DNA of 64,000 nt. Source: Cenococcum geophilum. Lineage: Eukaryota. Shown in pieces: positions 1-51,322 of the stretch. The translations under genes were made by a program, and so were the position numbers. The DNA is taken from contig CP158635.1 in the NCBI GenBank assembly GCA_050273025.1, positions 13,268,001 to 13,332,000 of the forward strand. The letters run 5' to 3'. Every line of letters begins with the position of its first letter. Position 1 is the first letter of the stretch. A model generated the notes under the pieces. It saw only the letters and a list, made by a program, of their open reading frames with translations. It searched no databases and was not told where the DNA came from.

Positions 1-573
1 AGAACACATAGGGCTCTATTTAAGGTTAGGTTAACGTTATATAAATATACCCTAGCCGCAAAATGCACTATTATTAACTTTATTAGCTACCTAAATTAGG
101 AGGCTACTGTCTATAAGCGCCTCTGTCCGATTTAAGGTATATATATACTGGTATATCTAGGAAATATTAATCTTAACCATCTATATTTCTATAACAGTAT
201 TATAGAGATTATTTATATAATGTTCCTTAGTTTTAGGGGGAAACTAATCTTTTAATATATTAACGGCGATAATAGGCTATACCTAATAGAATAGGTTAAG
301 CGCTTAATTCGGGCCGTTTATTAACTAGGAGTTTTGCACTAAGATATAATGCCTTATAATATACTTTGGAATATAGAGGTTAGCAAAGCAATAATAATTA
401 ACTTTAAACGGGCCGAAGTTTTAAAACCATAGGCTGCGCTAGGTGTTATCTTACTAAATTAAAAGAAAAAATGGGTACCTAAAGAGGGTTTAAATAAGCA
501 GCCGGGAGGATATTATAATGAATTTATATAGGAGATATAACGGGTAATAGTAGAACTCCGCGGGTTAAAATAG
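1..573 (+). pseudogene. RIP-degraded C-terminal kinase-like domain of a Spok-family (spore killer) protein; 5' part outside window
   Basis: Frame +1 de-RIPs to GARGALFKVRLTSYGYTLAAKCT..F...L..EAAVYERLRPIQG.HVPVYLGNIDLDHPYFYDGIAEIVHMMFLSFGG...AVHQLGVLHRD.MP.NILWN.....MVIDFERAEVLKPR.ALG.ISPNRKRK, ending at TAG 571-573. Internal stops are TAA/TAG derivable from CAA/CAG/CGA. Motif order matches the Spok kinase domain as I recall it. Confidence 0.75.
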
Positions 574-789
574 CTAGGGTGTTTACCGTATTAGTAAATT
601 AAATAGTCTTTATAGCTTCTAGACCTAGAAACCCTTATAGGCCCCCTTTTTTTCTATTATTCTATAAACTAACTTCTATTTTAAGGATAATGCTATCCTC
701 TACTAGTAAAGAAGACGCTAGTAGAGCGACTAGACTTAAATACGTAATAGGGGAATATAGTTCTGCTTGCTTTAGACGCCAAGCTTAGT

Positions 790-1672
790 TAAATCTGCTA
801 ATTTATTACTAATTAAGTATATAAATACGGCAAATACTCGCTATAAAGGGCGGGGCTGTTTAGCTTAAATCTAATATATAAATTTCCTTTAATAAGCAAA
901 CAATATAAGACTAAAGAGCGTACTATTTAAGCTAATAAATTTCCTCCTTAATTCTGTAGACTTCTCTATCCTTAGGCTAAGCATACCCTTTTCCTCTTAA
1001 ATGCCGTAATCTTATTTCTTACCTTTATAACCCGTTTATCTCTATAATCTAAAGTTTTATTACTACCTCTCTTAAGAGTATAGATTTCGTTTTAAAGCCG
1101 CTTAATAATATCTCTTATCTCTTTCCAGTTACTTCTTAGGTTGTTAATCTAATTGTTAACTTTCCCTAGATAACTTATAATATAGCGGTCGCATTTTTTA
1201 AGGCTACTAACTCTCCTATTAAGTTGGCTAAGCTTATAACTAAGTTAATTAACTAAGCTACCTAGTCTCTCTATTGCCCCTAATAGAGTAAGCTAGGGGT
1301 TAGTAAGCTTTATTAGAAGAAGTTACTAAACGGACTATATTAAGACGGCTTCTTTATCTCATTAGTGCGGAGTAAGTATTTCCTTATAGTTCCTTTCGCA
1401 TTAGCCTTATTATTCTCTAAATCACTCTTACATTCCGATACTAACTAAATATCCTACTTATATTAGTAAGCTGGCAAATAGATAAAACTATAGGGAAGTA
1501 ACTATTATATACCTACCCTACTATATTAACGGCCTTATTGGAGCCCTTAAAATAGAAAGCATATAGTATATCCTAGCTCTATTAGCGGTATCCCATAAAG
1601 GATTTAATATTTAAAGCGCACCTTGGCCTAATACAATATAGTATCCTCTATTATAGTATCTAAGTGGCTCAT
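790..1672 (-). pseudogene. RIP-degraded unknown gene with a coiled-coil-like C-terminal part (putative Starship cargo)
   Basis: ATG at 1672 preceded by TATAAAAGG on the minus strand (~1785); GTAGGT...CAG intron ~1516-1472; Q/S-rich then heptad-like de-RIPed translation (KVDDQIDDLRSDWKEMRD...). No family recognised; ends approximate. Confidence 0.35.
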
Positions 1673-2865
1673 TATTAAAGAGATAAGGCAGCTAATAGTT
1701 TAAGTATCTTTACAAGAAAGTAAGGAGGGATTTTCTTAAAGGATACTATACTTAATATAGATCTAGTTAAAGGATATAAAGGCCTTTTATATCCTACTCC
1801 TCTCTACCACCTAGCTAATAGGAGAGCTAATAGTAGACTCCGCTTTAACTATACCTTAAAAGTCGAGCCGATTTACTAACTTAGGGATACTAGCATAGTA
1901 TTACAAATGCGCTATAATACGGCCACAATAGGAGTATAATCCTTCCTATCTATACCTACCTTTACTATACCTCTATAGGAGGGTTACATTAAACGACAAG
2001 GGCTAGCATTAACCCCTTTCTTTTAATTATTCTAAGACGGCGATATAGAGGCAGCCGGTTAAGCGTTGCTTCGCACAGCAATACCTATCCGGTTGCGTGG
2101 CTTCACTTAAGCCCTATTATACGCCTCAACGTAACTTCCTGTTGCCTTAATAGCTAACAAGCTAGGCCTAAGGTTAAGACAAGGTAAATAGGTAACTTAG
2201 CTTTTAGATAGCCCCAATAGTATAGGGTTTAGAGGCGTTTATATAAAATTATAAACTAGAACTAGAAGCTAATAATAACCCCCTAATAACGCCTTACCTA
2301 GTAGGAATAGCATTATATAATCCACTCCTAACGCCCACCCTTTACAGAGCAGGGTATTACTTAAGTAGTAGACTTATCTTAGCCAGTTAATCTTATATAT
2401 TTACTCCTTATCTATAGCAAAGGAGCTATTAGTGCGTTATAGGGTAGTTTAATTAATATTCTAGCTAAGCCCTTTATAAGCGCTCCGCCTTATACAGGCG
2501 GTATAACAACTCCTATTAATCTATCTTGCGTTAAGGGAGAACTTATATTTAAAACACTAAATAGCCGGTACTTAGGTATATAGACTTATACCCTTATTTA
2601 TACGTTCTACTACGTCCTTATTTCTATAAGTAGTCGGTTTACTTTTTACTTATTATTTATCTATTAAAACACTCCACCTTCTCTTTTTTTACTAGCCGTT
2701 CTATCTAGTTATTAACGTTAATCCTCCTCTCCTCTATAGCAACTATTCTGGAATTTACTTTAGATCCTCACTTATAAAATTAACTAAAAAAAAAGCTAAA
2801 CGCACTATTGTGGATTTAAGGCGTTAGTGTTAGCCTAAGTACTATTAGACTTCTTAATCTTTACC

Positions 2866-4570
2866 ATATATAGGTACCCTCTAGACTATAAAATCGCCCT
2901 TCTCTATTATGCTCTTTTTAGGAAAAATTAAAAACCATACTTATAATAGTATATTTAGATCTAGCAACACTTTTAAAAGCCTATTAAGCAGCCTAAATAA
3001 GGCCTAACAATAAATAACCTAATAAAAAGGCCGGTGTAGGCCTATAAAGATCCTTATATCTTAAGCTAATAATTAAAAAGAAAAGGCTAAAAGTAGCTTT
3101 AAAGCGTAATATACCTGCTAGGGATTAGGTTTATGCTATTTTATTTAGCTTATAAATAAACATACTTCTTCTTACCGTTCTCGTCGGCTTTATAGTTAAT
3201 TATCTTTACGTTAACGGTATTACTATATTTATTGTTAACTTTATTGCTATTATTCCGCTTACTGTAATACTTAGTTACGCTACTAAAGAGATTACGCTCC
3301 GCGCTAATAATATATTAGGTAGTCTTTTAAACGCAACTTTTAGGTACATTTCTCCGCTTCTTATTTATTCTAATATTATCTAATATTTGGCGTAAAAACG
3401 CTATTAAATTAATTATCTCCATCTTAGCCCTAACTAAGGGCTAGATTACTATTATTTAAACTTACTCCTTATCCTTAGTATATACTTCTTCTTTAAAGGC
3501 ATTAACTAGGTAGAACAACATTTCAATATAACAGTAGCAGGTACTACGGCCGGTCTTCTAGCTCTATACGTTAGCAGTCTAATTATTCCAACTACCTTCC
3601 ACTCTACGCTGTTAAGTAAGTTAAATAATAGCTTTAGACCTATAATAGGTACTAACCTACGTAGCTATAAGCCCTAATAGCTCTATACTTAATCTGGAGC
3701 TTTCCCATAGAATAGCTATTATCCTCCTAATTATATACGTTTGCTACCTTATATTTTAATTAAAGTTATATACTAAAATATATAATACTCTAAGCTAAAG
3801 GGCTCCTAAGCGCAGGTCCTCCTATAAGCAGGGTATACCTCTCTATAGTATTATATAGATTAGTGCTAGAGCGCCGGCTATATCTAGAGGCGGAGTAAAC
3901 CAAGAATAGCCTATACAGGATTTAAACGCAGAAAAGGAAGATAACGAGATTAAGGAGCCCCAATTAACGATCTGGGGTGTAATTATAACCCTTAAAATCT
4001 CTACCGCGTTAGTCGCCTTCTATTCCAAGTTTATAGTTAACAGTATTAGTAATATTACGGTAAGCGGCACTATCTCCACTACTTTTATCAGTCTTATCCT
4101 ACTCCTAATTATTAAAAACGCTGCTAAGCACGTAATAGCGGTTATAGTAGCTTATAAGGATAAAATAAATCTAGCAATTAATATTACTATTAGATTTAGT
4201 ATATAAATCGCTCTTCTAGTTCTCCTATTTGTTATTATACTTAATTAGATTATAGGCTAGGATTATATAACGCTTTATTTTAATACCTTTCTAATTACTA
4301 TTTTATTTATTACTGTACTTTTAATAAATTATCTTATCTAGAATAGCAAATCTAGTAAGTTTTCCTTTCTATATAGGTAATCTACTATAACTAATACTAA
4401 AATAAACTGGCTTAAAGGCGTTCTTATTATAGCAATCTATACTATTATTACGGTTACTAGCTAGTTTTATTAAGTTTTAAATCCTCTTTATCCTACTTAG
4501 TTTAAGCCTCTAATTAATATCTTACTCCTCTATTAATATTAACCAGTTTCCATTACCTAGAGCTAAATAG
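2866..4570 (+). pseudogene. RIP-degraded vacuolar Ca2+/H+ exchanger (CAX/Vcx1 family)
   Basis: De-RIPed: ILFSSWINILLL...NFIAIIPLAAMLSYATEEIALR.G..LGGLLNATFG/NAVELIISILAL (alpha-1 repeat, ~3140-3430); FFFGGINRVEQHFN; LILLPIVGNAAEH.TAV.VA.KDKMDLAINVAIGSSMQIAL (alpha-2 repeat, ~4095-4215); NWLEG near 4405. Several introns are recognisable; ends approximate. Confidence 0.9.
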
Positions 4571-5130
4571 GATTTTTAAAAATTGTATATATGGCTTTCT
4601 AGCGAACCCTAGGTTAATCTTCTTATATCTATTAAGCCGTCCAAATTTCCTAAAATGTTACTTTCTTTATTTTCTCTTAAAAAAAATTTATATTTATATC
4701 CTTTTTCTTTTATATAGATTATGTCTTATTATACTATTCTCTACTATATAAATCCTCTTATATATTTATTATACCTATAATAGTGCGAGAGTAATTGCTA
4801 CTATTAACGAATTAATACGTCTAATATATCTCTAGTATAATAGATATATAGGACAGGTAACTATATATAGAATTTCTAAAGTATAAAAACTGGAAGCCAA
4901 TTTATAAGCGACTATCCCTTAACCTAGTATATATAGGGCTGTAAGGCTAAGGTAGCATAAGCTAAAGGCGTAAAGCGAGATCCGCAGTTCCTTTAGAGTT
5001 TAAGGGGAAGATATTTTAGAACCTAGAATAAGAACTATAAGGCGTTTAAGGCCGTTAGAATACGGAGTAGGCAAGAGTAAAAGAGGTAATCCGCTTATTT
5101 AGGCGGTATATATTTACATTAGATTATAAG
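4540..5130 (-). pseudogene. possible small RIP-degraded gene immediately downstream of the captain
   Basis: One minus frame de-RIPs to protein-like sequence (HRLDERIASFALAYSAF...IDVDFFREKMKEVTFQEIWTAQQ...AIFENPIQLQ) with stops mostly explicable as CAA/CAG. No family recognised. Confidence 0.25.
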
Positions 5131-5598
5131 GCTAGTTTTAGCTATATTATAAATCCGCTCTTCTTTCTAATATATATTTAAGTTTACCGGCTTATTAGCA
5201 ATTAAAATTCCTATAAAGAACTAGATAAGTAATAAACGTTATATATAAGCTATTTACTTATTATAAGTAATAAGCAAGTGCCAAATAAATGGTAAATAGG
5301 TAGTAATACTAATACCTTTTACTATAAAGAGGACCTTATTATAAACTCTCGCGGCTAAGTTACCCCCTATTTCTCTTACTTCCCTTACCATTCCTTCTAA
5401 TTAAGAATTCTCTCTAAAGGAAAACTTCTTAATATAACATAATCTATAACTAAAGAGAGAAGGAGCTACCTACTATTACCTTCCTCCCTCCCTTTTTTCC
5501 TTCCCTATTTTCTTTTATTTATTATCTTAAATATAAAGACAGCAATAATAATACGTTTCCCTTGCAATATATACTAGCAAAGGAAGAGTCCGCGTATA

Positions 5599-8282
5599 TT
5601 AGTGAGACACTCTATATACATTAGATATATATCTCTTAAAATATATTATGCCATCTAGCTTAATGGAATATTTAGGGTAGCGACATTAAAACTCTCTCTA
5701 ATATTCGGGGCGTCGAAAATAGGTATCCATATACTTCTTTAGGACATCTTTTTATAGTATATAGCGTATCCGTTTTTTATATAAGAATTTATTATTACCT
5801 ATATAAATAAGGTATACTAGGTGGGGAAGCTCTATAAGATATAACTAAACTATCTTAGCTTTAGCGGCGTCTAAAGTGCTAAGCTCTTATTAAATAGTCC
5901 CACAATATTTATTATCCGGCAACTCTTCCTTTAGGGACACATAATCGGGAGTTTAGTAATTTAAGGTACTCTTAAAACTGATATCCCTTCGCTTTTACAC
6001 GTAAGATATTTTCTTATTTTTAAAAATAACAAAGTCTATTTTCTTCTATTTTAAAGGTTTGCGTTAAGCCGTTTCTTATTAATAACACAGTTAAGCTAGG
6101 TTTTTGATAAACTTAACCCGGGCATTTTTATTTTTAAAAGATATAAAAAGTATTCTAGCAATGGTAGCCCGCTCTAGAAGTTTAAATTCCTACCTTAGCA
6201 GTATTAATACCTTAGTTAGGCCCTTCCCACTAAGCTGCCTAGCTATCTCAATTATGTTAATTAAGTCGTGGAATTTATAAATAGCGGTTATTAATCGTTC
6301 CCTCTATAACTTTTAATACATTATACCAATATTCCGCTTAGTCTCTTTATATTACTAGTATAATTTAGTACCTTTAGCCTTAGTAACGGGGTAGAGGCCT
6401 TTACTGTAGATAAGGTTTTTATATTCTTCTCGTTCGTCACAAAGCGCTCTAAGCTTAGGGTTATTGCGGACTTCTTCTAGCTAGTCGTTATTAAGCTCTA
6501 TAGGCGCTCGTCGATCTTATAATAGCCCCATTTTCGCGACAGATTTAATAAGGAGATTCTATAAAAGACTTCTAAAATAGATACTCTGGTAATCGCTTAT
6601 AATATACATTAGTATATAATATCTCTCGTATATACTACTAAGATGGCCTATAGTCTGGTTCCGCTCTTCTAAAGTAAGAGTGTCTATCTATATAATTAAT
6701 ATATAACTAGGTCTAGAGGTAATTATTAAGCGGACCTACCGTTAATATTTTTACCTAAAGCCTATCGCAGCTAGTACAGCTCTAGTGCCTCCTTAAACCC
6801 AGTAATAAGCCCTAGGCGTATAAATATATCACAGTATTTAGCGTATAGAAAGGCCTTTTCTTTTATAATATTGCCACCCCTAGTTATATAGCTAACGTTA
6901 TAGAAGAATAGCCAATCTAGTACTTCGTCCTTTTACCCAATATATAGCACGTCGCGGTGCGCCAGTACCTTAAGGTTAAAGATATCTTAAACACTCGTAA
7001 AGTTATCTTAGAATGCATTTTAACTAACGCTAATAGCTAAGATATATAAAACAATACAAAACGTAGGAAGGTCTTCTAAACGGAAGGTAAATTTCTTTCT
7101 ATAAATTTACAGTTAGTAGGATATATTATTTAGACACAGCATAAAGCTTACAGTTTACTATCCTTTTCTTTATTCTTAATATATTCTAGGTTTATATTCA
7201 CCACAACTATACTCTTATTAGAGTGTTTCTTACTACAAACAACTATAATATTAATATTCTTAAACCAGACGGCTTTATTACTACCTTTAACACTAGCACT
7301 TTCCACTAAAGCGCCTAGTCTTATAGCTATAGCTGCACTAAATAGGAGAAGAAGCGAAATTTAAACTTAAATAAAGCTATAGAGTAGCTTAATATCGTTA
7401 ATCTAGAGAGCGTGGAGGATAGTATAAAGGTCTTAGACAAACATAGCGTACTTTTCCTTTTACAACTTATTAAGCTTAAGGCTTAGGATCCACTTCTATA
7501 GCTATTAGCCTACCTTAAAGGAGGGGTAGGAACTTATATTGTAAATATTATTAAGGATATTACTATCCATCTAATAACGTGTAAGGTCTATATAGCACAT
7601 ACTAATTCATTTCCAATAGCTTCGCATTAAGCTCTCCTTCTTAATTCGAAAATTTCTCTTCCGCTAGCGGAGATATGCTTTAAAAACCATCGGGGCGCAT
7701 TTATACAGCTAATTATCTGCGGTTTTTTAGGTTTTCTTTTTAATCTTTAGGCAGTACCTAGTTTATAGTAATTAGAGGGTGTAATAACGAGTTAGCAGAA
7801 ATTTTTATAATTTACATCTCCCAGATTTCGCCTTCCCTCTTCCATAGTTTCTTAGTATAAGAAGTATGGTTTAGTTTCGCGGGTCCCTCCTCTTCTAATT
7901 CAGCAATATCTTTTAGTATTTCCTCAGCTTTAGAGTCTAATTCCACGTCTAATCCCGCATCTAACTCTGTATTAGACTCCGCATCTAATTCCGCATCTAA
8001 TTCCGCATCTAATTCCGCATCTAATTCCGTATCTAATTCCGCATCTAATTCCGTGTCTAGTTCTCCAGAATCTGAATCTATACTATCTTCTAAACGAATA
8101 TATATATCTAGATCGGTATCTATATCCGAGTCTAGACTTTAGAGTCGTGAATTTAAGTTTTAATAAACAGCGGCGGCGTAGAGTGCTCCTCTCCTCTCCG
8201 TCCTATAAGCCGGAGCAGCTACTTTAATAGGCGTACCACTATTCTAGCAACGGCGAGTTTGCTAAATAGGTAAGGTAAGCAT
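5599..8282 (-). pseudogene. RIP-degraded Starship captain (DUF3435 tyrosine recombinase with C-terminal C2H2-like zinc fingers), 5 exons
   Basis: ATG 8282, stop 5599-5601, four GT-AG introns. De-RIPed motifs: EGPAKPNH...KLWKREGE.W; FKAYLRWR....RIKKESS..SYWKR; LLLL.SAATATRPGALVES....SNKA.WFKDI (catalytic R ~7320); ELYQLRRASG (~6765); ERNQTMGH..GTYERYY (catalytic H and Y ~6650-6615); MGLSRDRRAP; PVCLICIG...KKHVDTHF...CRHPKC...HFKRHA.DVH. Confidence 0.92.
7935..8060. repeat. 12-bp tandem repeat (TCTAATTCCGCA)n encoding an acidic (ESDA)n tract in the captain N-terminus
   Basis: About 10 units are visible; the minus strand reads GAA TTA(<TCA) GAT GCG in frame with the captain. Confidence 0.9.
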
Positions 8283-9130
8283 TATAAATAAGGATTAAAT
8301 TGCGGGAGAGGAAGTGGAACGAGGATAGTAAAGGAAGAGAGAGAGGAAGTAGAATGAGGGTAGTAAAGGGAGGAAGTGTGGGGAGAAGGCGAGCAGGCCA
8401 TTTCTTTAAGTAGACGCTGGCTTTTCTATATGGGCTATACCATATTAAATTAATATAAGCGCCGACGAGCTTTGCTAAAGCTCGTGTCCCGTTTCTGCCC
8501 CTTTAGAATAATAGACGGGGTATAATAGGGATTGCTTAAGCAAACAGAGCTTCTTTAAAGCGGCGATGTGATAGGGTCTAAGCGAGGTAGGAACGCCGCC
8601 AAAAGCGGCGGCCAACAACCCCCAAAAACAGATGCATTCCCACCACTATATATATTTACGTAGGTATAAATAGAGGTTATAGAAGAACGTATATAGGTAT
8701 TATAGGATAAATATAAGCACGGATTAAGAACGTTAGAACGCGTAGGGACATAAAAACGGGTAAGTCTCGTAATAAGGAGCTAGTTTTAGACGTGTTCTTT
8801 CTACCTAGTATTTATAGGTTAATACCTATAGGGGTAAGTAGGGGTAACGATATAGTAGATCGTGGGTTTTAACGGATTTCCTTAATTTCCTCTTTAAAAG
8901 ACTTAATCGTCTTATAATATTAAGCTTTTTAGCAGGTAAGGGATTCTATAAAGACCTACTATAGGCCCTTTATTTATTTGGTAAATATAGTATATAAATT
9001 AGTTATAAATATAGGGGCTTTTAAGTTATTTTATATACCAAATAGGGCGGTATAAGGTATAGGTTTAACGCAATATAGTATTATAGAGTAAGTATAAGCG
9101 ATAATAATATATCGCAAAGTAGATATTATT

Positions 9131-9755
9131 AACCTATATATATAAGCTATATAATAAAGCTAAGACATTAGATAAGGAAAGAATGTAAGGAAATAAAAGG
9201 AAAGGGTATTTATTATTAACTTAATTGCTTAGTTAATATATATATAGGGCAGAATAGGATTTAAATAGCGGTCCTAGCAGAACTTAGTAGGATTTAGTAA
9301 ACTTGGTAGAATACAATAGAATACAGTAAATTGCCATAGATTACGGTAAATTGCGGTCTTGTGGTTGGTCTTTTATTGCTAAGTCGGTAGAAACAGGTAG
9401 GTGTATATAAGGTATTACTGGGGTGTTATTACGGAGTAAGCATAAGCTATATATATGAACTGTATAATAAGGTCAAGACGTTACATAAGGAAAGAAGGTG
9501 AGAAAACGGGAAGAAAGGGTATATATTATTAGCTTAGTTGCTTAGTTAATATATACACGGAGTAGAATAGGATTTAAGCAGTAGTCCTGGCAGAACTTGG
9601 CAGGATTTAGTGGAACTTGGCAAAATATAGCAAAATGTAGCAGATTGCCGTCAGGCTGCCGCGGATTGTTATCAAATTGCCGTCTTGTTGTTGGTCTCTA
9701 GTTGCTAAGTTAGTAGAAATGGGTAAATGTGTATAAGGTATTACGGGAGTGTCCT
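9131..9755. repeat. diverged tandem duplication, period ~313 bp
   Basis: 9131-9430 and 9444-9755 align (e.g. ttgcttagttaatatata, agaataggatttaa, gtcct.gcagaactt.g.aggatttagt, tataaggtattac). Confidence 0.8.
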
Positions 9756-9768
9756 ATAATAGGTGTCC

Positions 9769-9987
9769 TATAATAAGGGGTTTCCTAGGCGTATAGTTAT
9801 ATATTTAAGGACCCTTAATCCCTACTATAGATAGTTCTCTCTTTATAGTAAATCTTAGAATATAATCGGAGTCGATCTATTAGGTAACTACTCTACTAAT
9901 TATTATTATATTATTAACTTCTTATTTACCTATATACCTAGCCCATTAACAAGTCTACCGTAGTATTTCCTATAAGGCTTTATTATA
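9769..9987 (+). repeat. 5' LTR (short form)
   Basis: Termini tataata...tattata (RIPed TGTAACG...CGTTACA); the last ~190 bp match the end of the 3' LTR. Confidence 0.75.
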
Positions 9988-10139
9988 CATTTACTACTAA
10001 GGTTATAGTATTAATAAAGTTAAATAATATACCACTAAAAGCAGCCGCTACGACGCTGTTAACGGTAGCAACTATATTAGGATTAGGTAATAACACTAGT
10101 ATAGTAAATACTAACTCTTAGCTAGTTACTATTAGATAA

Positions 10140-13100
10140 CTATAGGAAATAGTTAATTAATTAATAGATAATAATAGAATACTTAAAGAAAGGATTACTG
10201 GAATCGGAGCAGCTAAGGTTAAGTTACCCTTAATTAAGCGATTCTTAAGAGAGAAGTTAAAACTTAAGGGATTCCTTATATAAATACACTTTAAGGTTAT
10301 GTAGGAAGGAGTTAAACTAGGAACGCCTATAGATTAAGTCGCTTACGCAGGATTATTCTTAACGGAAAGGGCACTTAAGTGGTTTAAATCTTACCTTATG
10401 GAGGTATAGGAGCACAGCATAATAACTACTAATTAAGAGGTATAATATATATTCTTAAGTTAAAACGGGTTCGTGGAAAGATTAATATAGATATTTAAAG
10501 ACCTAGAGGTAACTACTATAGTAAAAAGAAAGCTTTAAAACCTAGTATAAAGAACTTTAGTAATTAAGTATATAATATAGTTTTAAACGCTAGTAATATA
10601 AGTTAAATAGAATAATAAGGCGCTTATAGTATAGTATAAGTAAGGACTTAAGGTAAAAGTCTAAAATATAATTATTTTAATAAAAGATACGGACACTTTT
10701 AGGGAATTAATTAATTAAGTAATTAAGATTAATAATAGGATCTATTAAAGAGAGCAGACTAAAAAGGGTTAGGATAGAGTTCTATAGTTATATAAGGCGT
10801 AAGGTACGTAATAATAAAGCTAAAGTTAAAAACTATAGTATAGCGCAGATTTAATAGACCTAAGCGGTACTAAAGAAAATAAGAAATAAAATAAACAACT
10901 ATAGAAACCCAGAGGATAAGAATTAAATAATTAAAGGTCTAAGGAGTAAAGGCTAAACTAGGGATTTTAGTAGCAAAAGACATTTAGGCGGACTCTATAG
11001 TAAGAAAAATAGTTTAAAAAAGGAGTTTATATAAATTGCGGAAAATAGGGTTATTATATTAAAGACTATAGAAATAGTTAGAGTTACTATATAGTAAAAG
11101 AAATAAGACTAGTAGACAATATATATATATAGAGGGACGATAATATACTACAAGGAACAAAAGAATATTTAATTAAAAGTTTTACATTTTATTATAATAA
11201 CGTATACTAAATTTATAAGACGCTAAGTATAGCGTAAGCTATTGGCTATAGGAGCTAAAATTAGTAGAGTTTAGAGAAACTAATAAACTAGTTTATAAAT
11301 TGGATATTAAGGATAATAAATTTAATATAGGCGAAATATTTAGTAATAATAAGGTAATAAAAGTAGCTTACTAGAAGTATATAGATCTTAAAGATATTAT
11401 AAAAAAATAGAGGATAATTCCACTATAGAATAGGGAATATTAGTAGGGATTAAGACCCTACTAAATACGATGTTTATCGCTTTATAAGACGCAAAAGAAG
11501 TAGGACGATAAACTACTTCGGTACTTAATAAAGGCAAAAGGCTAAAGGCTTAAGATTCTTAAGACGAGATATAAGACGCTTAAGATTCCTAAGATAGGAT
11601 GAGATAAGCTTAAGGACCTATAATAGATAATAACCAATGGAGCAGAGCAACGGCTTAGTTTAGTAACATATAAATAAGCTTAGGACGAAGTTTCCTAAAG
11701 GCATAAGACTCTTAAGACGAGATAAGTAAGATTTAAGATTTTTAAAATAAGATAAGAACACTATAGAAGCCTAATTAAACTAAGGCTAGAGCTAAGCTTA
11801 AGAAAGAAGTAAGCTTAGAATTAAGAATCCTATAGGACTAAGATTTTAGTAATAAAATAAGGACTATTAAAGAAATTACGAGCAAGGCTTAGCAACAGGA
11901 TTAAAATATTAATACTAAGATTAAGAAGTAAGAAGACTTTAAAAATCTACTTATAAGGCGAAAACCAAAAGAAATTAGGGAGAAATTTAGACAGAGAATC
12001 CTTACTTAGCAAGAACAGAAACTAGATTAGAAAACTAGTACACTAGGTTATATAAGGGATAGGGCACCTATATAAAGAATTACTAATAGGCCTAGGGCAG
12101 GTATACTAAGAGCTAAGTAGCTTACTAAACTAGAAGATAAAGAGGATTTAGGGATCCTTACTAGGTTTAAAGAACAACATATAAAGGGCTATTACGATAT
12201 AGTAATAAGAAGATACTTCCTTATGGACAAACTGTATACACTTCAACAGCTATACTAAAAATAGTATAGGCAACGACATAATAATAAGTAAGAATATTTC
12301 TATATATAGTTGGGTAAAAAAGTTATTTAGGACTACCCTATTATAGAGAAGGCTATAACTTATATTAAAGGAGCCTTAATTATAATATTAAAGGATCTAA
12401 AGGAACGATTAAAGGACTAGAGAAGTAAGAGATATATCTTAGTACCTGTAAATAAAGTCGTAACGTCTAGATTAATATAGTAAAGGTTTAAACTTAAAGA
12501 TAAAGATAAGTTAAGAGTTAACCTAAAGCACCTAGTATACTATACGCTATTATAGATCGCATATATAAACAACGTATATAAAATGTATAAAAATCCAAAA
12601 GAGAAAAACCGGAAGTACTCTATAAGGATATATTGGGCGCCAAATAAGCGATAGTATAGGAATGCTAAGTATATACATAGATAGCATCTAGTAGAAGTTT
12701 AGGAGTTAGGAGACTTAATACTTTAATTAGAAAGATTCCTTACAGAAAAATGCTTAAATAGATAATAGTAGTAAAAATGTCTAGAGAATACTTATTTATG
12801 GTATATTAAAGATAAAAAGCGAACTAGGTATTAGCTAAAGAGTAAGCCAAGTATATAAGGATCTAGTAGCTAATAGTTAGGAAAAGTAAATGCCTATGGG
12901 ATTAAAGGGAGCCAGTAATAAACCCTTAAACCCTTAAAGGAATTTAAGGATAACACCTAAATTTATAAGTTAAATAGTAAGATTAGCAGTTTAAAGTACT
13001 AATAGATAGTGGAGTAATACGGAACTATATCTTATTAGCAGCAGTTAAGAGAATAGGATTACCTTATAGATAGAAGGAACAACCTTACCTATTATTTACA

Positions 13101-16100
13101 ATTTTAGGAGATCTAATAGCCTATAGAGGAGGCATTATTAACCTTAAAACAGGACCTATTTAAATAAACATTAAAGGGAGATAAATTAAGATATCTTTTA
13201 ATATCTTACTATTAGGACAAAATAAGGCAGTATTAAGAATGCCTTAGTTATAGGAATATAATCCAAAAATTAATTAGATTATAGGTTAGGTCGATATTAG
13301 AGATACTTAATGGCGTAAGATATAATAATAGACTAAGTTAGTATAGTACTAAGTCGGAGTAATATATAAAGAGATTAAGCGAGGCTTAAGTTATATACTA
13401 AAGAGATACCATAAGTATAGCAAAAAGTTATAAAGCCTAAAAAGTAAAAGGCTAGCAGATTATATAGCATAGAACTATAAGATAGAGTTAAAACTAGAAA
13501 TAAGTCTAAGGTTCTTTCTAACCTATAAGCTTACTTAAGAGGAGTTAAAAGTACTTAAAGAGTTTATCTAGGAAAACTTATAAAAAGGATATATTAAACT
13601 ATCGCAGTTATTAGCGGAATATTTAGTATTATTTATACCAAAGAAGAATAGAAAACTTAGGCTATATATTAACTACAAACAGTTAAATGGCATTACTTAA
13701 AAGGATAGGTATTCTTTACCCTTAATTAGCGAAATCTAGGACTAGATAGGTAATATGTAAATCTTTACAAAGATAGATCTAAGGTAGGTATACTATTAGA
13801 TTAAAATTAAGAAAGGCGATAAATAGAAGGCAGCCTTTAGATTAAGAGAAGGACTATATAAACCATTAGTTATACAGTTTAGGTTAATAAATATACTAGT
13901 AATATTTTAAAAAAGAATTAATAGTATATTAGGAGAATACCTTAATAAGTTTGTTATAGTATACCTTAATAATATTATTATCTACTTAATAACTAAGGAA
14001 GAATATAGAGAGCATGTTAAATAGGTTTTAAAAAGACTATAAAAAGAATAGATACTAGTAGCAATTAAGAAATACGAGTTCTTTATAAGGAAGACCGATT
14101 TTATTAGGTTTATTATTAAACTAGGTTATATTAGTATAGACCCAAAGAAGATTAAAGCCATAGTAAGTTAGTAAGAACTAGAGAACGTAACGCAGTTAAG
14201 GTTATTCTTAGGGTTTTATAACTACTATAGAAGGTTTATAGCATAGTGGTTAAAAAACATTAAACTATTTACTAGGCTTATAAAGAAAGAGGGATTGTAG
14301 GCATAGGGAGATAAATAAAAGAAGTTATTTAAAGAACTTAAAGAGTTATTTACCTAGGAGCCAATTCTTAAGATCTACTAACTAGGACTAGACATGGTTA
14401 TAGAAACGGACGTATTAGACTTTATACTAGGAGTATATTTGCTATAGAAGTATAAGGACGTATAGTACCCAGTAATATACTATAGTTGGAAGATAATACT
14501 ACTAAAGTTAAACTATAACGTCTATAATAAGGAGTTATTAGGTATAGTTATAGCACTTAGGGAATAAAGAGCATTTTTATAAGGCGTAGAGAAACTATTT
14601 ATAATTAAAATAGATTATAAGAACTTAACGGGGTTTCTAATAATAAAAGAACTTAATTATAGATAGGTTAGATAGGCAGAGATGCTTACAGAATACTATT
14701 TTAAGATTTAGTATACTAAAGGAACTAAAAATATAAGGGTAGACGTACTTAGTAAAAAAGCTAAACTATAAAATAATAAGAAACTATTAGGAGTAATACT
14801 ACACAGAGATAAGGATGGATTAATTAGATATAATTACCCTAAACTAGTAGTAACTTAAGAGGATAATAAACTAAAAAGAGTCTATAAGACACTAGAGAGC
14901 TTTTAAGTATAAAGAATTCTAGAAGTATAACTAGAAGATCTATAGATGGATATATACGAAAATTAAAAAATAAAGTATATCCTAAAAAGCATAGTAGAGC
15001 ATTTTATAGAAGATTTCTATAAGGAAATAACTTAGGGACATAATAAAGCGACAGGCTTAGTGTTAAGACTTTAGGAAGAATACATTATTAATAGAATTTA
15101 GGGTATAGCTAGAAAAGTAATAAAAGAGTGTTTAGATTGCTAAAGGAATAAACTAATAAGGTATAAGCTATACGGAGGGCTATAACCTATTAAAATACTA
15201 GAGAGACTATAGGAGTTTATATTATAGGACTTTATTATTAAATTACTAAAGTTAAGAGATCCTATTACCAGATAAGAGTATAATATAATCTTAGTAATAG
15301 TAGACAAGTTAACTAAATAGGGCTACTTTATAGCATGCATAGAAGAAATCTTAGCAGAAGATATCACTAGAATCTATATTAAAGAAGTATTTATAAGATA
15401 TAGAGCACTAAGCAAGATTATATTAGATAGAGATCTAAGATTTATAGCAGCATTTTAGGAGGTATTCTTAGCGGAATAAGGGGTTTGCGTAGTAATATTA
15501 ATAGCATATTATCTACAGACGGACAGATAAACGGAAAGATTAAATTAAACGCTAGAATAGTATTTAAGATATTATATTAATTATATATAGAATAATTAGG
15601 TATTACTATTACTAGTTATATAGTTTATATACAATATAACACTATAGGAAGTAATAGGCATATTACTATTTAAGGCAAATTATAGATATAAGCTAAGAAT
15701 ATTATTATTACTACAATAAGTAAAGAAAACAAGTAGCACAGCTAAAGAAAAAATAAAGATGTTAATAAATCTTTATATAAACCTTATAGAATTAGCGAAA
15801 AAGGTATAAAAGAGAATAAAAAGGTACTATAACGCTAAGAGATCTAAGGGACTAGATCTTAAGGAGGGGGATAAAGTATAGCTACTATATAAAATTTTTA
15901 AAAGTTAATAACTAAGTAAGAAATTGGACCATATTAGACTAGGACCTTTTAAAATTATTTAGAGGATTTTACTAGTTACGTTTAAGTTAAACCTACTAGC
16001 TAAGATAAAGATTTACCCTATATAGTATATTGCAATGCTAAAGCTAGTATATAGGAATATTAAGCTACTAATTTATAAAGTAGACACGTATAGAGGATAA

Positions 16101-16290
16101 GAGGAAAATAAATAGTAAGTTTTAAAGATTATTAGTTATAAGGATATTAACAATAAAATATAGTATAAGGTTAAGTAGATAGGCTATAATAAAACTACCT
16201 AGGAACTACTATAAAATTTAAAGAATGCTATAGAAAAGGTATAGGAGTATTAAAAGAAAATGGGTTAGGTAATATTAAGAAAAAGCTAAA
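10140..16290 (+). pseudogene. RIP-degraded gag-pol
   Basis: De-RIPed: gag ERFSGEKSKLKGFLTQM; CCHC knuckle C.NCGKQGHYIKDC ~11030-11070; protease IDSGATRNYI ~13002; RT YLDDIIIYS 13962; RNase H VETDASDFALG ~14400; integrase RPWE..SWDFIVKLP ~15203 and AYHPQTDGQTER ~15504; chromodomain ~16110-16250. Confidence 0.93.
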
Positions 16291-16888
16291 GATAAAGGGA
16301 TTAGTTAAAGGCGATAGATAAGCCAAATTATCTAAGGGATTTACCACTAGCGTATAAGCTGTTTCCGCCTCTTCTTAATTAAAATCCTTTTTAGCCTCCT
16401 TAGCCTTAAGTTTAGATAGACCTTACTCTACTAAATAAAGCTCTTTTAAGCGTACTTTTTTACGGACCTTTACTAGACGGCTTAGGCGAGTATAAATATC
16501 TAGTTAAGCTTTTAGAGCTTAAGATGCCTTATTAAAACGACGCTGAACTTTAGCAAGGGCCTCGGCTAGCTTACTCTCTAGTTTTTCAGCCGCTACTAAT
16601 ACGCGCGACCCTAAGACAGATTAGATAAGAAACTAGACAATTATAAGAAATAATAAAATATATATACTTAGTATTAGAGACGGATTAAACATTATAGGAT
16701 AACCGTATATTCGCTCGCGTATACTTAATATAAGAAGAAGGTTAGCAACTAGACGGAGATGCGATTATAATATATACTAGCTTTTTCTCTATATAACAAG
16801 AATAGGATAGTATAACTTTACTAAGTAATAGAATAAATGTTACTAGCTAGTTATAACGATTAGGCGTAAATAATCTAATAGGAGGTAT
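16230..16888 (-). pseudogene. antisense extra ORF of the Gypsy element: Cys6 zinc-cluster-like motif plus coiled coil, one intron
   Basis: De-RIPed MPPIRSS...GEVMPSCSRCTEKKLVC.......QPSSC.ECTRANMRSSCDV; intron 16665-16611 (ctaat branch, ttag acceptor); then WSRVLAAAEKLE...ARLSRLVKVRKKVR..E...VEQGLSELEAEE. 3' end approximate. Confidence 0.7.
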
Positions 16889-16995
16889 TAGGAATAATAA
16901 AGGTTATTAAATTAAAGATAGAAATGCTATACCTCTAATAGACGACTTAGAGATAGGAGATATCTTTAAGGATAAAGAAAAGAGGAGGGGGGTAG

Positions 16996-17415
16996 TATTA
17001 CGGACCTTATATTAGCAGTAGCGCAACTACTAAGAATAGACATAAATAGGTTAGTTAAAATAGTATAGGAGGCGCTAGAACCGATTAAGCTATAGGATAA
17101 GGGGTAGCTAAGTTACGTGGCTAGTTACGTTATAAGTTCGGAATATAGGAACATAGGAATATAGAAACGTGACGTACTAACGTACTAATATACCAACGTA
17201 CTAAACCCTTTATTATAGAGAGGAGTTATATATTTAAGGACGCACAGTCTTTATAGGTAGTTTCTTTTCTTTGTAGTGAATCTTAGAATATAATTAGAGT
17301 TAATCTATTAGGTAACCACTCCACTAGTTATTATTACGTTGTTGACTTCTTATTTACCTACATACCCAGCCCATTAACAAGTCCACCGTAGTATTTCCTA
17401 CAAGGCTTCGTTACA
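16996..17415 (+). repeat. 3' LTR (long form)
   Basis: Begins tattacgg (RIPed TG...) just after the PPT and ends cgttaca; internal short tandem repeats (atataggaac, aacgtact). Confidence 0.85.
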
Positions 17416-17449
17416 GTCTACCGTAATACTCCTATAAGGTTTTATTATA

Positions 17450-17803
17450 CTTATCTAATAGCTAATAGAGCTCTATAAACTTATTTATCTACTTTATAAG
17501 CTTATCTATTATATCCTCTATAAAGAATAGACTAAATATCGTAAGGGCATCGCTTGTATTAAGGTTAAGTAGAAGATTTAACTAGCTATAATCGCTAATT
17601 ATTAATTTTTAGGGTTTAAAGCTGGGTATTAGCTAAGGCTTTAAAGGATTTTTTTGTAATTTGAGTCAGTGGAACCTTGTATTATATGCATTAAATAATA
17701 TTTAGGTCTTTAAATCGAGAAGAGGAGACTATATTGGCAGTGAGGGTGACCAGGGGCCCGGTCTGTTGAGTTGGACATATCTCAAAACTCGTAGCTGAGG
17801 GGG
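17450..17803 (-). mobile_element. piggyBac 5' fragment (terminus plus transposase N-terminus), truncated by LTR sequence
   Basis: Minus strand from ~17701 de-RIPs to ...PSFEP......GQSNLPPNLDTSDALAIFSLFFTEDIIDELVEWTNEFAE, the typical start of the piggyBac DDE_Tnp_1_7 domain. A CCCCCTCAG terminus-like sequence starts at 17803, but is flanked by GTGA rather than TTAA. Confidence 0.7.
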
Positions 17804-18073
17804 TCACTCTTTGGTAATGCAACGAGTATCAAGTGGAGCCTTGTATTCGAACATAGTTATCATCTCGAAGGTAGTGAAGTCGGTATTGAAGAGAGGCGTG
17901 AACAATATTGAAAGCCGTCGGGCAGATCCCTGTTCGGGGAAACCTTGGGGGAAGCCCGAGAAAGTGCCCGAAAGCTGGCGGGAGCTCAACCTCAACTCCA
18001 AATTTAAGGACCAACACCACATCTCCCTCACATCTCCTCTCTCTTCCTCTTCCCTTTCTCGATCTTATCAGAT

Positions 18074-19614
18074 ATGTTCGCGAGGACGTTACGGAAAAGC
18101 ATAGCATCGCCGCTACGGCGTAACGCTTTTGTTCCTGTGACAAGACCGGCGTTCAGGACGGTCACCACCGACGCGGCTTCCTCGCATGCTGACAAGGAGA
18201 GCGTACCGGAGGTAGGGCCACCAATTCCTACCCACAGGATACACAATTAAGAGGGCAATTGCTAATGATCAACAGGAAGATGACAAGCCCTTCAAAGTCC
18301 ATCTCTCTGATGAGAGCTTTGAGACATACGAGCTCGATCCTCCGCCATACACCCTGGACACCACCAAGAAGGAATTGAAGCAGATGTACTACGATATGGT
18401 GGCAGTACGGTGAGTACCACTTAAATAAGCTTAATTGATACCATATATGGTCTCTGAACCTAATTTCTTCCACTCTGCAGACGAATGGAAATGGCCGCCG
18501 ATAGACTCTACAAGGAGAAGAAGATTCGAGGTTTCTGCCACTTGTCTACTGGGCAGGAAGCCGTCGCTGTCGGTATTGAGCATGCCATCGACAAGTCCGA
18601 TAGCGTTATCACAGCCTACCGTTGTCACGGTTTTGCTATGATGCGCGGTGGAACTGTCAAGTCTATTATCGGCGAACTACTAGGCCGTAGAGAGGGTATC
18701 GCCTATGGCAAGGGTGGCTCTATGCACATGTTTGCTCCTGGATTCTACGGTGGTAACGGTATTGTCGGCGCACAGGTCCCTGTTGGTGCTGGCATTGCAT
18801 TCGCGAACCTCTACGAGAACAAGAACCATGTGACCTTGGCGTTGTATGGCGATGGTGCATCGAATCAGGGACAAGTTTTTGAGGCATTCAACATGGCGAA
18901 GCTGTGGAACCTACCTGTTATCTTCGGATGCGAGAGTAAATCAGCCTTCTCCGAACGCAAAACTGCCTGGAATATGACGCTAACATAATAATAACCAGAC
19001 AACAAGTACGGCATGGGAACTGCAGCCAATCGTGCCGCAGCGTTGACGGATTACTACAAACGTGGTCAATATATCCCAGGTCTCAAGATCAACGGCATGG
19101 ACGTCCTGGCCGTCAAGGCTGCCGTCCAGTACGGTAAGCAATGGACCAGCGCTGGCAAAGGTCCTCTGGTCTATGAATATGTCACTTACCGATATGGCGG
19201 ACATTCGATGAGTGATCCTGGTACCACTTATCGCGTAAGTTCTCACTTTAGACTTGACAATTGAAAGCCGTAAAACTAACACTCTTTTCCATCACCTAGA
19301 CTCGTGAGGAAATTCAACGCATGCGCAGCACCAACGATCCTATCGCCGGCCTGAAGCAGAAGCTCATTGACTGGGGTGTTGTATCTGAAGATGAACTAAA
19401 GCAGATCGACAAGGACGCCCGCTCCTCTGTTGATGCCGAAGTCGCCGAAGCCGAGAAGATGGCCCCGCCTGACCCAACTCCTCAGATCTTGTTCGAGGAT
19501 ATTTACGTGAAAGGCTCAGAGCCCGAGTACCTGAGGGGTCGGACCCCAGAGGAGAACTTTTATTACACCGAGGCAGATACTCCTGCGGGCCCAAAGTCTG
19601 TTGCAAGAACGTAA
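18074..19614 (+). CDS. PDA1: pyruvate dehydrogenase E1 alpha subunit, mitochondrial; exons 18074-18211, 18276-18409, 18481-18935, 18999-19234, 19300-19614
   Basis: [18 protein letters not shown] motif [31 protein letters not shown]-rich presequence; canonical introns. Confidence 0.98.
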
Positions 19615-20217
19615 AAGATGTAATTGGTGGGCGAGGTGTGAAGTTCTGAGGTGAAGCTGGAAGTAGGGGAGTGAAGGGTCGGAAGTTTTGGATTCAGAGT
19701 CTAGCAGGTATTCTGAAAAAGTTGTAATATTACAATCCTGTGACATTGCTGCTGTCTTAGCCTTCTCTTCCTACCGCACGTCATCCGAGTCATATAGAGA
19801 TTATTGTACACAGTTACAAGACAGTGGAATATGTTGTGATTGATGTGTTGCTTTGCATCTCCATCCCGAAAGAACCTCACCGTTGCTGATATACATAAAA
19901 AGTTTAGTCATGATCCCGGTACTAGTTATAACTCCCGAAACCTCGAAGGTAGAGGCTGCATAGGAGCCCACATTAGGCGCAGTCAATGCTAAAGAGAACG
20001 CATTCCAGCACCAGCTACCCATGGGATATCGAAAAGTACCAGCCCAACCCCTTTTAATCCTAATCTATAACGCACTTCGAAATGTTCTATCAACTGCATT
20101 TGTACCTAAATCATAGCAATATTCCGATCTAGGGCAGTTATATCGAAGCGGTGGGAGAAAATGGCCAGGAAGGTATCCGGAACATATCCGCCTTAACGCC
20201 CATCCCATACCCATAAA

Positions 20218-21937
20218 TCATCCCGCAACCTTCGGCCTCTTCGCCGCAATGACCTCCCGCGCACCTCCTACCACATCCTCATCATCGTCTTCATCTTCCT
20301 CGTCTACCACCCTCTTCTTCCTCTTCCCCCCATGCGCTGCACTACCGTTCGCCTCCTGCACCTTCGCCCACTTCGCCCGCTTCTCCACTCCCTCCAGTAA
20401 CCGCGTATAGTCCGCCTCCACACCCTTCGCCGTCTCCTCGACCTTCTCTATCCGCTCACTCTGCTCCATCTGCGCCAGCTGATCCGCATTATGTCGATAC
20501 AGGCGCTCCTTCAACGCCAGGCGCCAGAAATAGTAGCGGCGGTCATTCTCGTGACCGCTCTTCTCCTTGCGCGTGATACGCGCAGTGCTGCGGTGGAGCG
20601 GCGGGATGGTGCTGAGTAGGTGCATCTCGACGAGGCGGGCGAACTGGCGCGGAGAGATCTTGGCGGCGCGGCGCAGCGCGGTGAGGGTTTCTTCTGGTCC
20701 GAGGATCAGGTCGGTGGGGATGTCGGCGTCTTTTTGCAGTGTCGAGGCGGGTAGGGCGGTGGGCAGGGAGAGTGAGGCGAAGGCGGGGAGTGTGCGCAGG
20801 TACAGCATGTCGCAGTAGTCACGCATGTCGTCGAAGGCTTCGTTCGGGTCTTCGACGGTGATTTCGTAAATGTTGGGTGTGGAGACGAAGAGAGTGAACA
20901 TGGTGTTGTAGAGGTGGGTGCCGTGGGATTGGGACTGGTATGGAGGGAGGATCACGAATTGCGATATCCGTTCGCGTGAGGGGGCGGAGAGAGGATTGTA
21001 TGGTTCGGCATATCTAAAAGTTTCAGGATTTGTGGCTAGTTGTGGTGGTGTATAGGAGGTCAAATTGCCGTTTGAGGTATCGGTGATGGAGCCGGTTGCG
21101 CGCAGGATTTCTAGGGTTGGGAAGATCCAGAGACGGTAAGAGGTAGAGAAACCGGCAATGGTATAAGGCGAGGTTCCAGGTAATTTCTTCAGTGGGGTGA
21201 CTTCGTAGACAAGAAATAATGTCCAGCGTTCCATTGTCCAGTCTTGATCATCTAAATTCTGACACGTGCCGCCTTCGATATAAAACGGGATGAATATCTG
21301 CATTCGACGGAATATCTCCTTGGCTGCAGGGTCAGCCAGGCAGGCGCTCCATATTTCGAATTGCTTGCCATGTAACAAATAGCTATGCAGAAGTTTGCCG
21401 GGAGGCTTCCAGGAGCTATCAATCACATCTGATTCTATCGTATCCGCGGAAGTATTCGCCGCGTCAAAGACATCTATAGATTGTCAGCCTCATAATTTCT
21501 AGTTTCAATTTACTAGATGCTCCATATTTAGAACTCCTCCAGGAAGTTCTATTGTCTACGCAACTGCCGAGTCATACATTCTGGAAGATAATCCTTCAAC
21601 ATTTCCTTCAAGTCCATAGCTTTCGTATGGCCAATAGGTTTCCATTTCTCTTCATACTGGATATCCAGAGAAAGCTTGAGATCGTTGGCGCGAAAATCAA
21701 GGTTCAATTCCAAATCAATATATCCAAATATCGTCTCATCTTCGCCGAAGATTGGGTAGGTAAAGGTGGGATGGAACGGCTCCTCAAAGACTCGTAGGTT
21801 TCCAGATTTGCTAGTTGGGCGGACGAGGTTAATGTTCAGCGCTTCATTGGAGCTGACCAACCCTGATAGAGAAATTAGTGCGCAATGATCAAGCAAGTTG
21901 CTGAAGTCAACCCACATTTCTCAAGTTCTTCCGCCAT
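20218..21937 (-). CDS. HAT1: histone acetyltransferase type B catalytic subunit (3 exons)
   Basis: FHPTFTYPIFGEDETIFGY, FYIEGGT, RERISQFVILPPYQSQSHGTHLY, EITVEDPNEAFDDMRD. Confidence 0.95.
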
Positions 21938-50156: not shown

Positions 50157-51322
50157 TCAGTTACCCACCCCCACCTCCTCGCGAAACATCTTCTTCATCT
50201 GCTCCAGGTCGTCGATTTTAGCCCGAATTCTTTACAACTCACTCGTCCGCTTCAGCACATTGTCCAGGCGCTTCGAATGCTTATCTGTTTTAAGGTCCAA
50301 GACCAGTCGCCCAGCCTCTCGGTTCGCCTCGTCCAGAATAGTGTAGATGTCGAATTGCTCATTGGTGACCAAGTCGTTCTCTGCGGGCACATCCTCAAAA
50401 AGATCATTTACATCGTCCGGTTTGGGAACCTTGATGGTCGTCTTGCGTTTAAGATCATATACCTGTTTGTGTAACCACCCTGCTTTAGAGGTTGGAATGA
50501 TGCCATATCGGTGGCATTGCGTAGGAAGCGGTCGACAACGATTTTGAAGTTTCCTACAGCACACGTGGCATTGTATTTTACCATACCAGTTGGATGGCTA
50601 GTGAAAACCCATTGCCGAGTATAAGGTCCAATAGCTACGCCGTTATGCTCCTTCAAATCTTCCTGGCTGGCAGTCATGTTTGCGTCTTCCAGTGCAGTGT
50701 AAGAGAGGCTGCCACAGCGTATGGGATATCTTCCTCATTCTCATTGTGCGCCCAGGTTTTCCGCTTTACTTAGTATTCCCAATGGCAGCAATCATCTGAT
50801 GTGACAGAAGAATCCTCTTGCTCGTCCTCGGAATCAAGCTCTGCCTCTGAACCCGTATCTTGTCCCTCTCGCATAAACTCCAAACATGCTTCCAATGCTT
50901 CCATATTGTACGTCTTCCCACCAATAATAGGTCGTGCTAGTGCCGTTGCATGCAATATCGTCTCGGAATAAGGAACCACAATGGGTGATGGAGCTGACCC
51001 TGGAACTGGAGCAGATATTCTCTCTTGCATCAAGTGTACAGTATCGCTAGAGAGAGATTGATTAACGGTAACAGTATTTTGCTTCAGCCTGTCGGGCTGC
51101 CCCTCACGTATAGAGGTCCTGCTTTCATCTGAACCCGAATCTAAGTCCGAATCCTCACTATACTCTACTAAGGCTTCGCGAACTCCATTCGTTTGCGACG
51201 AGTTGTCTAGGCGTTTCTGAAGCCAAAGAGCGTCCTCTACGTCTATAGCCTTCAGAAAGTTTGGAGGTTCAGAAGACAATCTAGGTAAAGAGATTGCTGT
51301 TTCACCCAGAATATCTTTCGCT
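50157..51322 (-). pseudogene. 3' part of a large pseudogene split by the hAT insertion
   Basis: In frame with the ORF on the other side of the hAT once one TSD is removed; C>T stops and frameshifts; repeated YTxLxxAN motif (SYTALEDAN, IYTILDEAN). Confidence 0.65.

Follow-up and report, generated by a model that had tools for sequence, protein, structure and literature searches.

A repeated, RIP-damaged transposon of probable Starship type accompanied by Spok-family kinase remnants in Cenococcum geophilum

What kind of element occupies the heavily mutated left end of a 64,000-nucleotide (nt) stretch of Cenococcum geophilum contig CP158635.1 (positions 13,268,001 to 13,332,000; here called the window), and what did it carry? 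An initial annotation had read this DNA as a dead Starship giant transposon apparently carrying a Spok-like meiotic driver. We find that window positions 1–8658 are probably the 5′ part of one copy, killed by repeat-induced point mutation (RIP) and so 'derelict', of a Starship-type transposon that is repeated and has its tyrosine-recombinase gene, the captain, in first position. In Starships, the position and orientation of the captain gene are conserved, and DUF3435 captains form a clade apart from the recombinases of Cryptons (PMC9156397). The assignment of our element to the Starships, which we likewise regard as probable, rests on the DUF3435 family of its captain and on its captain-first architecture.

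The first 17.6 kb of the window form an AT-rich island, with a G+C fraction of 0.26–0.39 (0.28–0.39 across positions 1–9000) against 0.40–0.57 in the normal DNA beside it. Both RIP indices set positions 1–9000 apart from the stretch at 18–51 kb: TpA/ApT is 1.47–1.89 compared with 0.47–1.10, and (CpA+TpG)/(ApC+GpT) is 0.35–0.61 compared with 1.06–1.48. The block is absent from the open-reading-frame track, as had been claimed: no open reading frame of at least 60 amino acids (aa) overlaps positions 1–12000. A six-frame Pfam scan of positions 1–9000, with stops replaced by X, returned a single family at E ≤ 1, DUF3435 (PF11917). On these 3000-aa read-through frames, Pfam missed two further relics, a calcium/proton exchanger and a kinase, both of which were detected with short frames or by PDB and phmmer searches.

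The DUF3435 signal, with E values of 3.5e-19 and 3e-10 in two minus-strand frames, marks the captain pseudogene (Table 1). A 178-aa core of it retrieved 25 homologues, all 25 of which contain PF11917; the best relatives are from Dothideomycetes (Zopfia, Pyrenophora, Alternaria, Bipolaris and Plenodomus), at 53–56% identity over the 178 aa. An 815-aa homologue, P0002, aligns by tblastn through residues 99–815 in four blocks (8087–7800, 7759–7157, 7097–6738 and 6678–5602), its residues 5–47 match 8445–8335 (E = 3e-7), and the stop codon falls at 5599–5601. The gaps between blocks, 40–60 nt each, together with a 15-residue insert at about 7565–7520 inside the second block, fit short introns, so that the gene would have had five to six exons. 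The tandem repeat in the second exon encodes an acidic (D/E-L-D-A/T)n stretch, which P0002 also has (residues 99–156). The description of a complete five-exon relic with RPG, YQLRR and MGH...YY motifs is therefore right as to family, near-complete length, exon structure (five to six exons) and the positions of the motifs. The motifs themselves are damaged, reading 'RLG' for RPG, 'Y*LR*' for YQLRR and 'IGH...YERYY', and 41 in-frame stops interrupt the aligned blocks.

This damage can be partly read backwards. Scanning metagenome contigs with a 26-nt pattern taken from 8594–8619 yielded 17 further loci (L001–L017), 8 of them on eight contigs with one common name prefix. We aligned ten captain copies (window positions 5550–8670 plus loci from this set) and derived a de-RIP-style consensus; the variation is confined to transitions in 892 columns and of other kinds in 111. 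The consensus raises the G+C fraction from 0.354 to 0.49, reduces the captain stops from 41 to 12 and brings the captain closer to P0002, with identity in one exon, for instance, rising from 58% to 76%, which argues that the family descends from a working captain gene. Both the profile search and the de-RIP analysis proposed with the initial annotation thus came out in favour of a captain. Transition-only changes at CpG (161 C>T before G and 175 G>A after C) are about level with those at CpA/TpG (157 and 158), a mutation context broader than that of classic CpA-biased RIP.

The same set of copies defines the end of the element and its target. All 18 copies, the window included, are alike up to base 8658 and then continue into 18 different flanks. 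About 200 nt separate this end from the start of the captain, six-frame Pfam scans show no other gene signal between the two, and the captain reads inward (leftward). The captain is accordingly the first gene at a sharp end, as the initial annotation had proposed with an end at 8650. Over their first nine bases the flanks resemble one another loosely, with A and G at +4 and +5 in 17 of the 18. For L012 and L016, the flanks run on into paralogous repeats that are uninterrupted in L017 (90% identity), the match beginning 0–3 nt from the junction. These uninterrupted sites, ...TATTTT/GTTAG... and ...GCATT/ACTAG... (slash, junction), carry the motif, which is therefore part of the target, and 8658 is the true element end.

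Several lines of evidence support the block having been repeated and mobile before RIP, as had been suggested. First, the search for other copies produced 17, all RIPed and each beside its own flank. Second, in run X1, from the probable source strain, the summed contig depth over positions 1–8671 is 1488–20703 compared with 79.5 on the unique flank, that is, 19–260 times the single-copy flank. Summed depth is not copy number, however: contigs were mapped at 90% likeness or more while the copies are 82–87% alike, and depth is therefore used solely as evidence of many related copies. For the same reason, we rejected a segment-to-segment comparison of copy number by depth. Third, transitions account for almost every difference between copies (in X1, for instance, A>G 346, C>T 304, G>A 273 and T>C 242, with 2–14 for each transversion type).

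The element family, or else the window locus, appears to be variably present across strains and metagenomes. Public runs of the probable source strain contain 0.57–0.59 of the sampled words of positions 1–10000. In other strains with the same species label the share falls from 0.25 down to 0.00, and in two root metagenomes and one soil metagenome it is 0.14–0.18. Low cover of 1–8671 in run X21 and small word shares in the organism-B and metagenome runs were read neither as absence nor as presence.

How much of the DNA behind the captain travelled with it can be seen by comparing copies. The captain module (5587–8658) is common to all long copies at 82–87% identity (blastn). Eleven copies are readable past the captain stop, and they show 3–4 kinds of downstream DNA set against 11 different upstream flanks. 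In the first arrangement, the window is joined by L002 (colinear over 1214–8668, its contig end) and L009 (to 4507). The second, which we call class B, comprises L012, L013, L014, L015 and L017 at about 90% identity; the shared interior spans 8.5–10 kb in four of them and the whole 6.5 kb of L014, extents limited by the flank that was fetched. A third arrangement is found in L016, and L001 has window-type DNA (5384–5586) followed by class-B-type DNA. L016 also holds, at about 3700–4500, a nested pogo/Tc5-type DDE_1 transposase relic (E = 1.6e-7), and it is a less RIPed copy, with a G+C fraction of 0.41–0.49.

Because copies with different 5′ flanks share this downstream DNA, it probably lies inside the mobile unit. 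In addition, queries for the second half of the interrupted target matched paralogues elsewhere but nothing in the 10,065 nt next to the terminus of L012 or L016, which excludes a 3-kb captain-only unit for these two. Starships are large, at tens to hundreds of kb; here the length is at least 8.66 kb in the window, where the element runs off the edge, and exceeds 10 kb in both L012 and L016. A captain in first position, a variable interior and a length above 10 kb together make a Starship architecture, by the published definition and the example of Sanctuary (PMC12506042).

The window haplotype also has the kinase domain of a Spok-family gene at a distance of about 5 kb from the captain. As a phmmer query, nt 1–573 gave 887 matches at E ≤ 1e-3, nine of them at E ≤ 1e-30 (the best from 1.2e-46 to 1e-33). 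Many are 700–830 aa long and match by their C-terminal end, where Pfam scans of 13 matches found weak Pkinase, Kdo and APH signals only. By tblastn, residues 563–715 of P0032 (751 aa, the closest long match) and residues 453–628 of P0034 fall on the relic. P0032 and all 120 of its relatives among the matches listed carry PF27653, named SPOK2_N in the protein atlas; among the best 150 of the 887 matches, 102 are similar to P0032 residues 1–540, including 90 of the 91 longer than 350 aa. Since its relatives carry the SPOK2_N part, we take nt 1–573 to be the kinase domain of a Spok-family gene, and the Spok-like kinase domain reported 5 kb from the captain is confirmed as a member of that clade. 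Neither an intact reading frame nor a kinase active site is left: the relic has ten internal in-frame stops, and 'H*D' and 'NFK' stand in place of HRD and DFE.

Kinase sequence recurs beside the captain. In the five class-B copies, a 380-bp fragment lies 70–90 nt after the captain stop and about 3.1–3.5 kb from the element end, truncated at both ends, in the same sense as the captain and inverted relative to the window copy; class-B copies hold a kinase fragment, not a gene. The window relic, spanning the N-lobe to the C-terminus, is fuller. Kinase sequence therefore accompanies the captain in 6 of the 18 copies, and the captain family and Spok-kinase sequence are repeatedly associated. L001 has class-B downstream DNA without the fragment.

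Was this once a complete toxin–antidote driver? From the sequence, it is possible that the kinase gene was. The SPOK protein has three parts, among them a killing domain that resembles a nuclease and a kinase domain for resistance (PMC12693581), and a complete Spok-type gene, SPOK2_N killer part plus kinase, might have been cargo that acted as a meiotic driver before RIP. We consider this full proposal unlikely, if worth entertaining. Its attractions are the placement of the relic within the Spok clade with its long, SPOK2_N-bearing relatives, the recurrence of kinase sequence near the captain, and the frequency of Spok homologues as Starship cargo (PMC9156397, PMC12693581). The homology, moreover, starts at nt 4–19 (P0032 residue 563 at nt 13–19) and so reaches the first bases of the window; the kinase gene runs off the left edge and probably continues beyond it. 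Against the proposal, tblastn with ten Spok-family proteins at E ≤ 1e-4 found no SPOK2_N-like sequence in the window or the 17 loci, only kinase parts, and the five other kinase-bearing copies have just the internal fragment abutting the 3′ end of the captain. The window relic also lies 650 nt past nt 1214, the last base colinear with another copy (L002), so that we infer, rather than observe, its position inside the element, and drive is not something that can be read from sequence. Of the 'Spok-like meiotic driver' announced for this locus, what stands is a kinase relic of the Spok family; the killer part was not found in the window or the 17 loci.

A quite different account would restrict the mobile unit to the roughly 3.07-kb captain module (5587–8658), making it Crypton-like or 'mini' and turning the exchanger and kinase relics into an unrelated, RIPed insertion target. 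The module is indeed what all long copies have in common, several copies depart from the window sequence only a few bases away from the captain stop, a minimal transposing unit needs the captain alone (PMC12506042) and the high copy number resembles that of ordinary small transposable elements. Cryptons, too, are DNA elements that encode a tyrosine recombinase with introns, lack long terminal repeats (LTRs) and occur in many copies, and DUF3435 repeats were first annotated as such (PMC9156397). We nevertheless judge this account very improbable. A Crypton would be a unit of a few kb with the recombinase gene alone between its ends, whereas the family here carries 6.5–10 kb or more of shared extra DNA, with few kinds of downstream sequence behind many upstream flanks and five copies sharing one interior. 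In L012 and L016 the second half of the target lies beyond 10 kb, and the junction of window-type and class-B-type segments in L001 is what one would expect of rearranged interiors, not of random flanks.

Between the kinase relic and the captain lies one more recognisable gene, a relic of a CAX/Vcx1-type exchanger. The frame from 3153 matches yeast Vcx1 (PDB 4k1c) at E = 8.4e-21 over nt 3156–3614 and YfkE at E = 1.3e-4; in the frame from 3901, a Pfam scan detects Na_Ca_ex over nt 3982–4461 (E = 5e-9; 36.7 bits against a cut-off of 24.9). Both Na_Ca_ex halves are thus present, in different frames and with many stops, and the stretch bearing them occurs in 3 of the 11 copies whose DNA downstream of the captain is readable. 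The 'run of RIPed non-TE genes' seen in the initial annotation comes down to these two recognisable relics, CAX and kinase, which are real; positions 465–3152 and 4473–5598 match no Pfam family. The CAX-bearing stretch may be a nested repeat and not cargo. Within the block, summed depth peaks at 20703 over 2002–2668, compared with 5000–8000 on either side, and there is a weak 30-nt inverted pair (2002–2031 and 3068–3097); a small high-copy element may be nested there.

That the captain element, CAX repeat, Spok pseudogene and Gypsy retrotransposon merely piled up in an AT-rich island by nested insertion or segmental duplication, with no cargo relation, is likewise highly unlikely: summed depth is 5019–20703 over nt 668–4669 against 1488–3249 for the kinase and captain parts, and the surroundings are nested transposable elements (Gypsy at 9.8–17.4 kb, Gypsy or pogo pieces in many loci), but L002 keeps the same order over 1214–8668 beside a different flank, a kinase fragment adjoins the captain in five copies, and the depth comparison is unreliable for the mapping reason given above.

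Some observations nonetheless count against a derelict Starship. The accessory families DUF3723, FRE, PLP and NLR, usual but not compulsory in Starships, were all absent from Pfam scans of window positions 1–9000, L017 1–7200 and L016 1–7100, where RIP may hide them; the same scans gave only BTB (E = 0.007) in L017 and only the DDE_1/Tc5 transposase relic in L016. Neither the window nor any of the 17 loci, all of which stop short, yielded a 3′ end, a direct-repeat pair or an orthologous empty site. The content changes right after the captain stop in several copies (5587–5599), and in L001 at 5384. The summed depth of the CAX stretch exceeds that of the captain, as a separate nested repeat might. 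Finally, 18 insertions, 8 of them on the contigs with one name prefix, lie far above the 'low copy number' expected in the paper describing starfish (PMC11162782). Searches for repeats at the ends gave little: a purine/pyrimidine-degenerate terminal 22-mer yielded roughly 20 extra matches as a terminal inverted repeat, which is chance level, and no convincing inverted or direct repeats flank 465–5586. One 22-mer site common to the class-B copies was rejected as an inverted repeat, being the same homologous position counted five times.

On the Starship reading, a living captain would have cut out the whole unit and inserted it through site-specific recombination, its targets being ATT/NNTAG-like sites within AT-rich repeat DNA. 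A preference for AT-rich or transposable-element insertion sites is described for some Starship families (PMC11162782). Amplification would then have exposed all copies to RIP, destroying the captain and everything carried, in the window haplotype the CAX gene and the Spok-family kinase domain. A bolder version, which we regard as improbable, is that this Starship lineage escaped the low-copy rule altogether, reaching dozens of insertions in one genome at a loose ATT/NNTAG motif in repeat DNA, perhaps aided by a Spok-type toxin–antidote gene that it carried, until RIP killed the swarm and left kinase fragments beside many captains.

How does the element compare with known systems? Its closest counterpart in plan is Enterprise, the 'Spok block' of Podospora that carries Spok3 or Spok4, with an inward DUF3435 captain at the 5′ end and an interior Spok-family gene (PMC12693581, PMC9156397). 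Unlike Enterprise, the window element is dead throughout from RIP, shows only the kinase domain and has many copies; the nearest protein relatives of its captain are from Dothideomycetes, not Sordariales. Numerous Starships besides Enterprise carry Spok homologues (PMC9156397, PMC12693581). In Fusarium, Spok homologues (FuSpoks) lie inside Starships of several families (33/408), and some are intact and act as toxin or antidote in yeast (PMC12693581), whereas the window holds a pseudogene fragment. A 2026 preprint places a spok gene on a Starship in another pathogen. As a type of assembly, the proposed selfish gene inside a selfish element is not new: Spok homologues are already known from other Starships (PMC9156397, PMC12693581).

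The Starships Sanctuary and Horizon, of the Pleosporales Bipolaris sorokiniana and Pyrenophora tritici-repentis, also have the captain first, a few hundred bp from the 5′ edge, with a captain of about 760–815 aa bearing a C-terminal DNA-binding tail and with haplotypes that differ in cargo (PMC12506042). Proteins of these two species are among the best relatives of the captain relic (53–56% over 178 aa). In contrast to Sanctuary and Horizon, the window element has neither ToxA nor ToxhAT, and its copy number is much higher. Degraded 'Derelict' regions have been described (PMC9156397), and 'derelict' is the term recommended for RIP-inactivated copies in the starfish paper (PMC11162782). Derelict elements are likewise inactivated after insertion, RIP being one named cause (PMC11162782, PMC9156397). 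The Macrophomina Derelict regions are described as lacking a captain, whereas the captain relic is the best-preserved part of the window element.

Table 1. Features of the island at the left end of the window (copies L001–L017 as in the text).
Feature	Position	Strand	Basis or remarks
C-terminal kinase (resistance-type) domain relic of a Spok-family gene	1–573	+	phmmer, tblastn
Kinase sub-segment recurring in L012–L015 and L017	84–464	+	blastn identity 81–84%
RIPed DNA without recognisable gene	574–3152		Colinear with L002 from nt 1214; no Pfam family in six frames
CAX/Vcx1-type Ca2+/H+ exchanger gene relic	3153–4472	+	PDB and Pfam; also in copy L002
RIPed spacer, CAX relic to captain stop	4473–5598		nt 5384–5586 also in L001 and L009; no Pfam match
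Captain: DUF3435 tyrosine-recombinase pseudogene, 5–6 probable exons, C-terminal Cys/His DNA-binding-like tail	5599–8457	-	Pfam, tblastn
12-nt tandem repeat in second exon of captain	7924–8079	-	9 copies in register
5′ non-coding end of element	8458–8658	-	Last common base 8658; consensus ends ...CACATGTATTTA
Target-derived flank, loose motif NNN-AG-G/T-T/A-A-T	8659–8667		Flank comparison of 18 copies
RIPed Ty3/Gypsy retrotransposon	9790–17415	+	RVT_1, two RNase H families, integrase pieces

By blastn, copies of other haplotypes part from the window sequence at about 5587–5599, at the boundary between spacer and captain. Outside the element, positions 8668–9790, from the element end to the Gypsy LTR, consist of another high-copy repeat in which no protein family was found and which contains a 313-nt tandem duplication (9130–9426 and 9443–9752, 75% alike). 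The Gypsy element has LTR pieces of about 190 nt (9795–9980 and 17224–17408), its summed contig depth is thousands of times that of the single-copy flank, and many of the 17 related loci have pieces of this family beside them. Unique DNA begins at about 17.5–17.7 kb, and from 17.7 to 64 kb the window has no similarity to those loci. A second RIPed island (51000–54600, plus strand) contains the remains of a hAT transposase at about 54.1–54.3 kb (Dimer_Tnp_hAT, E = 4.4e-9). A third (60300–64000) gave no Pfam match at E ≤ 0.01; by eye, it has a minus-strand frame like the RNase H/integrase part of an LTR retrotransposon. It includes a tandem duplication of 176 nt (60797–61107) and a 98-nt stretch (61112–61209) repeated at 46289–46386.

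The main finding is probably a derelict member of an element type that has already been described, and its association with Spok sequences is likewise known; as the element is dead, its value lies mainly in annotation and comparison. The sole unusual trait is the high copy number: we observed 18 insertions, and read depth hints at tens. The work adds a derelict family of probable Starship type that is well delimited and has dothideomycete relatives; its exact 5′ end and target motif come from 18 copies. Relics of this sort would be missed by starfish-type tools and by open-reading-frame tracks. For the biology of the family, the locus indicates that the copy number of Starship-type elements can rise into the tens before RIP destroys them, and the repeated occurrence of Spok-kinase sequence beside the captain provides one more case for asking whether Spok genes accompany Starships more often than chance would allow.

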